A stretch of DNA of 16,480 nt from a virus (Duplodnaviria; Heunggongvirae; Uroviricota; Caudoviricetes): the IMG/VR virus record IMGVR_UViG_2548876963_000009. One strand, written 5' to 3'. Positions 16,350 to 16,480 of this stretch are shown here, piece by piece. A model generated the notes under the pieces. It ran no database searches, was not told the origin of the DNA, and saw only the letters and a list, made by a program, of their open reading frames with translations. The translations under genes were made by a program, and so were the position numbers. Within the stretch, counting starts at the first letter, position 1. Every line of letters starts with the position of its first letter.

Positions 16350-16480
16350 ATACTGGCAACTTTCCCAGCGAGCCTGGCTAACCGGGACCAGAACGAACTG
16401 AACGAAATCCGCCGCCAGTGGGTGCTGGCTTTCCGGGAAAACGGGATCACCACAATGGAACAGGTTAACGCAGGAATGCG
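16350..16480 (+). pseudogene. P: lambda P-like replication protein, start of the retained homology (about P codon 47); continues in frame at position 1
   Basis: Frame-0 translation ILATFPASLANRDQNELNEIRRQWVLAFRENGITTMEQVNAGM matches lambda P. There is no in-frame start codon upstream, and no similarity to the P N-terminus or to O upstream of ~16350. Confidence 0.7.
16425..16480 (+). repeat. Terminal 56-bp direct repeat: 16425..16480 is identical to 1..56
   Basis: Direct comparison of the first and last 56 bases (CTGGCTTTCCGGGAAAACGGGATCACCACAATGGAACAGGTTAACGCAGGAATGCG). Confidence 0.95.

Follow-up and report, generated by a model that had tools for sequence, protein, structure and literature searches.

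A 56-base terminal identity in a phage-like Escherichia coli contig as the probable assembly overlap of a loop closed through an ISEc21 joint between two IS3-family elements

The 16,480-b stretch of DNA analyzed here (the window) carries phage genes and ends with the 56 bases with which it begins, which raises the question of whether this repeat marks the termini of a phage or other replicon or reflects the way in which the sequence was assembled. Positions 1 to 56 and 16,425 to 16,480 (both + strand) are identical at 56 of 56 bases, as the preliminary description of the window had noted, an agreement with a chance probability of ∼4^-56. Prefix and suffix coincide at a length of 56 only, no third copy of the 56-mer was found on either strand within the window, and the longest other internal repeat measures at most 22 nt. 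An exact look-up of the end-truncated P product encoded by positions 1 to 489 returned a single record, and the window proved to be the entire 16,480-b GenBank contig AICE01000060.1 (E. coli draft assembly GCA_000447125.2). This explains why the window edges coincide exactly with the outer limits of the repeat, and the suggestion that the stretch had been deliberately bounded by a repeat is thereby refuted.

Both copies of the 56-mer lie within a P-like gene, at an arbitrary position. The 5' part of this gene (16,351 to 16,480, + strand) is N-terminally truncated, as judged from its translation and from alignment to a less decayed relative, L008, which keeps kil-cIII-N-cI-cro-cII-O and a full-length P at this position; homology to lambda P starts at about residue 47, near window position 16,351, and 46 N-terminal residues are missing. 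The 3' part (1 to 489, + strand; PF06992 is recorded for the product in L051) is in frame with 16,351 to 16,424. Translation runs without interruption over the wrap, from ...NEIRRQWV at the end of the window to LAFRENGITTMEQ... at its start and on to a stop codon at 487 to 489, and the earlier statement that the frame is in phase across the ends is correct. The splitting of P is an arbitrary cut only: the repeat sits inside a gene, and no end-like feature occurs at that position.

Among complete E. coli genomes, the best match to the window is a locus adjoining tRNA-Thr (thrW), for example in strain chromosome NZ_CP148268.1 (L001), where the order is proA, tRNA-Thr, integrase, IS3, prophage remnant, IS3, integrase fragment, yagU, ykgJ, ecp. 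In related chromosomes the locus is a defective lambdoid prophage at thrW, placed between proA-thrW-int and yagU-ykgJ-ecp, a site known as CP4-6 in E. coli K-12. The window resembles a cryptic thrW prophage in this setting and in its gam-bet-exo and nin genes, but differs in that its lineage has lost the region from kil to the N-terminus of P, carries genes for an inverse autotransporter (IAT), an esterase, a PACE transporter and a LysR regulator together with two IS3 elements, and appears here in circularly permuted form. Window positions 1 to 7757 correspond to L001 19,294 to 27,050, and positions 9132 to 16,480 correspond to L001 12,001 to 19,349. On this alignment, a segment that the reference chromosomes carry in linear form is circularly permuted in the window. 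One of the explanations offered in the preliminary description, that the ends are the k-mer overlap of a circular contig, gains support from this cyclic order, which fits a closed path of 16,424 b.

The two halves of the window, which stand in the opposite order in the references, are linked by a chimeric IS3R5'-ISEc21-IS3L3' joint that spans positions 6817 to 9448. Its left part (6817 to 7757, + strand) comprises 941 b from the 5' end of the right-hand IS3-family element (IS3R), is cut after ...TTCCATAGCGAC within the FHSD codons and is 98.8% identical to L001 26,110 to 27,050 and 100% identical to the corresponding part of the sister contig L007. Its right part (9132 to 9448, + strand) comprises 317 b from the 3' end of the left-hand IS3-family element (IS3L), starts with CAGGGCAGCC in the QGS codons and is 99.7% identical to L001 12,001 to 12,316 and 73.5% identical to the 3' part of IS3R. 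IS3L and IS3R lie in direct orientation, are 64% identical to each other and share no exact match longer than 17 nt. Between the two parts lies the 1374-b IS110-family element ISEc21 (7758 to 9131, + strand; Pfam PF01548 and PF02371, named as such in RefSeq), a segment that is absent from L001 and an element that is multi-copy in many E. coli. The 16,424-b unit thus consists of 15,050 b of prophage and one ISEc21 copy of 1374 b.

The element was recognized as ISEc21 by its length of 1374 b, a 358-aa DEDD transposase (8039 to 9115, + strand; Pfam) and, upstream of it, a noncoding region (7758 to 8038, + strand) with seekRNA guides that match the target. One guide, CACAGCGATC at 7859 to 7868, has the same sense as the top strand of the left half of the target, and the other, CTGCCCTGG at 7882 to 7890, is the complement of the right half. 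The ends of the element map to LT903847.1 1,802,057 to 1,803,430, and both the noncoding region and the transposase are intact. The LT903847.1 copy is the one used experimentally by Siddiquee et al. (2024; PMC11187229), who showed that ISEc21 is guided by a seekRNA from its own upstream noncoding region, that its insertion has a fixed orientation and duplicates no target sequence, and that its natural target is the IS3-family DNA that codes for the DDE motif's second D. Since this DNA is the ISEc21 target, both IS3 elements of the locus carry the target, in the same orientation. The joints in the window read ...TTCCATAGCGAC/AGTAAT... on the left and ...GGGCGTC/CAGGGCAGCC... on the right; both fall in the FHSD/QGS codons, with zero duplicated bases. 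The window therefore resembles the published insertions (...AGCGA(C/T) followed by CAGGG..., no target duplication, fixed orientation; PMC11187229), but unlike them it takes its flanks from two different IS3 elements that lie 15 kb apart, an arrangement absent from that paper.

Complete insertions of ISEc21 in IS3R and in IS3L are known at other loci (L002 and L003, both of NZ_CP090611.1). Relative to these, the IS3R 5' side of the window is 99.8% identical and the IS3L 3' side 100%, and the nonmatching sides are 73% and 63% identical. What the window contains is thus a passenger segment plus exactly one insertion sequence, with the left flank of the downstream target site and the right flank of the upstream site. 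Such a joint arises only when recombination connects the segment's right end with its own left end, and it therefore makes the path cyclic whatever happens in P. The preliminary description missed the ISEc21 junction, which is the feature that actually closes the loop.

Some further features of the two IS3 remnants were observed. OrfA of IS3R (6889 to 6987) has a premature TAA after 32 codons in the window lineage, and IS3R was already defective apart from the insertion of ISEc21. A search against Rfam gave a sole match, to the 'isrC Hfq-binding sRNA' family (6885 to 7007, 130.7 bits), over the start of IS3R OrfA; here the family model matches the 5' region of an IS3-family element, and the match is irrelevant to the ends of the window. 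Position 9174, in the IS3L OrfB remnant, is A (Trp to Arg) in the window and T in all other thrW-locus IS3L copies examined; the A allele is shared with L003, the IS3L::ISEc21 copy at a different locus of NZ_CP090611.1, and may reflect either a SNP private to the window or the conversion of a short tract by another copy.

The closest relative of the window is a 73-kb contig, L007 (ABBWPP010000024.1, assembly GCA_019573565.1), in which the order is IS3L5'-ISEc21-IS3L3', the prophage segment, an intact IS3R and the yagU side. When rotated to the start of ISEc21, the 16,424-b unit corresponds to L007 596 to 17,019 with two mismatches over its full length, and its outer limits are the first ISEc21 base, within IS3L, and the precise point at which the empty IS3R target would be cut. 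Another sister assembly, L046, shares the arrangement of L007. ISEc21 is present in this same IS3R in other lineages, namely in a GenBank chromosome (L042), in a 16,090-b contig (L047) and in a gut-metagenome scaffold (L048) that ends 55 b inside ISEc21. In L042 (CP148541.1, 1,867,394 to 1,888,179), two complete IS3R::ISEc21 copies, inverted with respect to each other, enclose the prophage segment, which is itself turned around relative to the yagU side, and IS3L is missing. We considered L042 as a two-copy parent of the window and rejected it, as inverted copies represent a different and larger rearrangement in another lineage. Two further assemblies show that ISEc21 copies recombine in natural genomes: between GCA_964038665.1 (L023 and L024) and GCA_964036875.1 (L028 and L029), an inverted pair of ISEc21 copies ∼27 to 36 kb apart has swapped flanks that are 100% identical, which is consistent with inversion by recombination within ISEc21.

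The products and precursors of the rearrangement were sought in sequence collections. Neither the junction of the nin side with IS3R5'-ISEc21 nor the exact IS3R5'-ISEc21-IS3L3' chimera occurs in 5426 complete RefSeq E. coli genomes. Junction-specific patterns gave no match in IMG/VR, JGI metagenomes or GTDB representatives, where only related linear contigs were found. A two-copy parent, with ISEc21 in both IS3 elements, was found in none of the assemblies of the window lineage; the sisters carry it in IS3L only. The reciprocal product, an ISEc21-free chimeric IS3 OrfB, was not among 5.8 billion proteins (best match 84% identical), a result that does not prove its absence, as such genes are often left uncalled as pseudogenes.

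The remainder of the window is prophage remnant and cargo. An inverse autotransporter of 1183 aa, an invasin/intimin-like adhesin, is encoded at 739 to 4290 (+ strand; Pfam IAT_beta, Big_1 and Invasin_D3; H1 annotation), followed by an alpha/beta hydrolase of the BD-FAE/esterase type at 4327 to 5370 (- strand; Pfam; H1 annotation), both cargo genes, and by a remnant of the nin region with ybcN, ninE and ybcO (DUF1364) at 5818 to 6726 (+ strand; annotation). The prophage left arm occupies 9449 to 16,185 (- strand; H1 annotation and L007 gene calls). On it lie two hypothetical genes, an efflux gene of the PACE (chlorhexidine) type and a gene for a LysR regulator on the + strand, together with genes for a dATP/dGTP pyrophosphohydrolase, an Ea22-like protein, TraR/DksA, DUF1382 and DUF1317, and with exo, bet and gam. 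The PACE-family transporter gene and its divergent LysR regulator (10,283 to 11,729) are prophage cargo, as is the adhesin gene. The exo homolog (14,421 to 15,101, - strand) has an internal stop in the window and in the sister L007, bet and gam are intact, and a 226-aa exo product is kept in other lineages (L047 to L050).

Between the left arm and P, alignment to L008 identifies positions 16,268 to 16,350 as a deletion joint, at which kil-cIII-N-cI-cro-cII-O and the sequence through the N-terminus of P were removed. As L008 retains the genes from kil to O and P, the window lineage has lost its immunity and replication-initiation region. The 83-b stretch at the joint matches neither the gam-kil side nor the P gene of L008. 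All three mismatches to the P gene of L008 (16,367, 16,385 and 16,424) fall in the 74 b that follow position 16,350, with full identity beyond. This pattern suggests that the kil to O deletion was made by recombination with a different P allele.

Circular contigs from de Bruijn graph assemblers carry an end overlap of k or k − 1 bases, which CheckV-type tools read as a direct terminal repeat and as a sign of a circular or complete genome. The window is like such contigs in that the identity occurs at the two ends only, the cut is arbitrary within a gene and the length fits k − 1 at k = 57. It is unlike the usual cases in that its content is not that of a replicon and in that 56 does not correspond to the common SPAdes values (55, 77 and 127), although it is k − 1 at k = 57 in Velvet-type output. 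We infer that k = 57 and a Velvet-type assembler lie behind the overlap; among the E. coli genome centers of that period, one worked with Velvet and VelvetOptimiser. An exact prefix-suffix identity is found here at the contig ends only, in a contig that is the whole record and whose order is cyclic relative to independent linear references. The 56-b identity is therefore probably not a biological terminal repeat but the k − 1 overlap of a closed de Bruijn graph contig, and, viewed as a terminal repeat, it is of the ordinary kind that circular graph paths show at their ends.

We examined which molecular states close in this way with a toy de Bruijn graph (k = 57) built from L007-derived sequences. 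An isolated circle gave a closed unitig of 16,424 k-mers, that is, 16,480 b, exactly the size of the window. By contrast, breakage at ISEc21, with an open unitig of 15,157 b, was the outcome for the linear state with two copies, for a tandem duplication and for a circle accompanied by a chromosome that keeps one ISEc21; the circle with a one-ISEc21 chromosome, or a tandem array, closes only with pruning of low-coverage branches or with long-range data. Closure therefore needs competing flanks that are absent or pruned, with the loop in large excess, or long-range information, or a wrong walk through the collapsed ISEc21 repeat.

We consider, with a probability of roughly 0.7, that recombination at ISEc21 gave a circle or a head-to-tail array that the assembler reported with a k − 1 overlap. 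Circle and tandem array, which the preliminary description had both put forward, are both possible, as either has the window sequence as its unit. In the proposed course of events, ISEc21 would already have been present in IS3L, the state seen in the sister strains, and would then also have entered IS3R, a step that we infer for the window lineage and that uses a site occupied in other lineages. The second insertion would have created two direct 1374-b repeats 15 kb apart, recombination between them would have yielded an excised circle or a tandem array, and the assembler would have output this as a closed loop. Against this explanation, no assembly of the lineage showed the two-copy parent, and the IS3R5'-ISEc21-IS3L3' joint may exist only in the graph and not in DNA. 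A nonreplicating circle should not persist at genome-level coverage, and the simple two-copy model needs either the loop form in large excess or a particular assembler behavior.

Excised circles bounded by insertion sequences, translocatable units (TUs) of IS26 and tandem amplification between direct IS copies are known kinds of rearrangement. The window is like these in having one IS plus a passenger, direct target sites or IS copies in the reference and chimeric flanks. Unlike the IS26 TU, it involves an IS110-family, RNA-guided element that is nested in two different IS3 elements, and we know of no conservative TU-type reaction for ISEc21.

Other explanations of the loop were weighed against recombination at ISEc21. 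That it is a genuine circular replicon, or a phage or satellite genome with a biological direct terminal repeat, is a reading to which we give almost no credence: the terminal repeat itself and the phage-derived genes are all that speak for it. Annotation and gene calls place no terminase, structural (capsid or tail), lysis or integrase gene, no cI, no O and no ori within the window, and the preliminary description had rightly judged a circular defective prophage with no replication initiator to be odd. Packaging and virion genes are likewise missing from the window, and no phage relative was found to end at the repeat; the best phage match covers 36% of the window, and the phage relatives carry P internally. 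O and ori are deleted, P is truncated at its N-terminus, exo is interrupted by a stop, the repeat lies inside a gene that shows nothing resembling an end, and identical DNA is chromosomal and linear in many genomes. PLSDB holds no record of the unit as a plasmid, its best match being a chromosomal fragment labeled a plasmid, in another arrangement. In the PLSDB record NZ_AP026904.1 (L021; a linear 237-kb 'plasmid', pMY504-2), icd, rluE and ompC occur together with genes of lambdoid prophages, so that it resembles a piece of chromosome more than a plasmid. The loop is neither a phage genome nor a plasmid. We also find it very improbable that the window is a linear contig that stops at a 56-b repeat shared with a second P-like copy in another lambdoid prophage, a finding that the preliminary description had named as grounds for refuting circularity. 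Position 16,424 is G here and T in six of eight phages and in two prophage allele types, the commonest polymorphism of lambdoid P, base 57 is polymorphic in some alleles, and contigs of the sister assemblies end in bet/gam, a sign of other lambdoid prophages in the lineage. However, not one of the 12 allele types examined combines an intact 56-mer with differences at both 16,424 and 57, a repeat of 56 b is too short to break a k = 57 graph, and a distant second copy of P is insufficient by itself, as the chimeric joint at 6817 to 9448 leaves the contig cyclic relative to every reference regardless of P. The polymorphism at 16,424 hints at another lambdoid prophage in the strain, and its coincidence with the repeat boundary is probably accidental.

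The two other alternatives differ from our preferred reading in how the ISEc21 joint came about, and it is because of the closure requirements seen in the toy graph that both retain some weight. In one, the loop is a misjoin: the chromosome would be linear with a single copy of the segment (U) and ISEc21 in both IS3 elements, the two ISEc21 copies would have been collapsed, and a false circle from U through ISEc21 back to U would have been drawn. Neither circular nor amplified DNA would then be present, and a repeat-resolution or scaffolding step may be at fault. The loop does hold exactly one copy of a 1374-b element that exceeds short-read inserts in length and that many E. coli carry in several copies. 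ISEc21 is proven to target both IS3 elements, and graph cycles from IS-bounded chromosomal segments are a familiar artifact. Yet a plain de Bruijn graph of this state gives the 15,157-b open unitig rather than a closed 16,480 b, the relatives with ISEc21 at this IS3R (L047 and L048) end their contigs at or inside ISEc21 and do not close, and the two-copy state was not seen in the window lineage; on balance, we regard a misjoin as unlikely. In the other, which is a subcase of the loop as real DNA, ISEc21 itself would have made an RNA-guided deletion, with the integrated left junction (IS3L5'/LE) recombining with the intact IS3R target 15 kb away. This would release a circle (ISEc21-IS3L3'-U-IS3R5') that holds the only ISEc21 copy, much like an IS26 translocatable unit, and leave a clean chromosomal IS3L5'/IS3R3' joint, with competing flanks absent. 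The unit indeed begins with the first ISEc21 base and stops exactly where the second target is cut, the single-copy state is the only one documented in the lineage, the ISEc21 copy is intact with guides that match the target, and this was the only tested configuration to close unbranched at 16,480 b with no coverage pruning. In the published mechanisms, however, a donor (RE/LE) is paired with a target, or excision brings together a left and a right junction, whereas a left junction and an intact target leave the donor-left guide with no partner. No record exists of the chimeric IS3 OrfB expected as the reciprocal product (the nearest protein being the 84% match), two insertions followed by homologous recombination yield the same sequence, and a nonreplicating circle should be lost; we therefore hold such a deletion to be distinctly improbable.

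For the classification of such sequences, the window passes the test by which a direct terminal repeat denotes a complete circular genome, and it has phage genes, so pipelines could misfile it as a virus or plasmid; the chimeric IS junction is diagnostic of a contig that is neither a complete virus nor a plasmid. The wider implication concerns the elements themselves. The ISEc21 target is conserved across IS3-family transposase genes. Wherever two IS3 elements share an orientation, a pair of long direct repeats could thus be established, and deletion, amplification or release of the intervening DNA could follow. In the present locus, that DNA includes genes for an invasin-like adhesin, an esterase and a PACE-type efflux pump, the LysR regulator of the pump and the Red recombination genes, and a selective advantage from the PACE/LysR and adhesin cargo is plausible if the unit were amplified. 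If amplification or an ISEc21-dependent circle is true, the locus would be a case of a natural RNA-guided recombinase reshaping a 15-kb chromosomal segment, and if ISEc21 itself made the circle, it would be a natural translocatable unit of a bridge/seekRNA recombinase, consisting of the IS and 15 kb of cargo. The locus makes it possible to test whether pairs of ISEc21, or ISEc21 alone, delete, amplify or mobilize chromosomal DNA.
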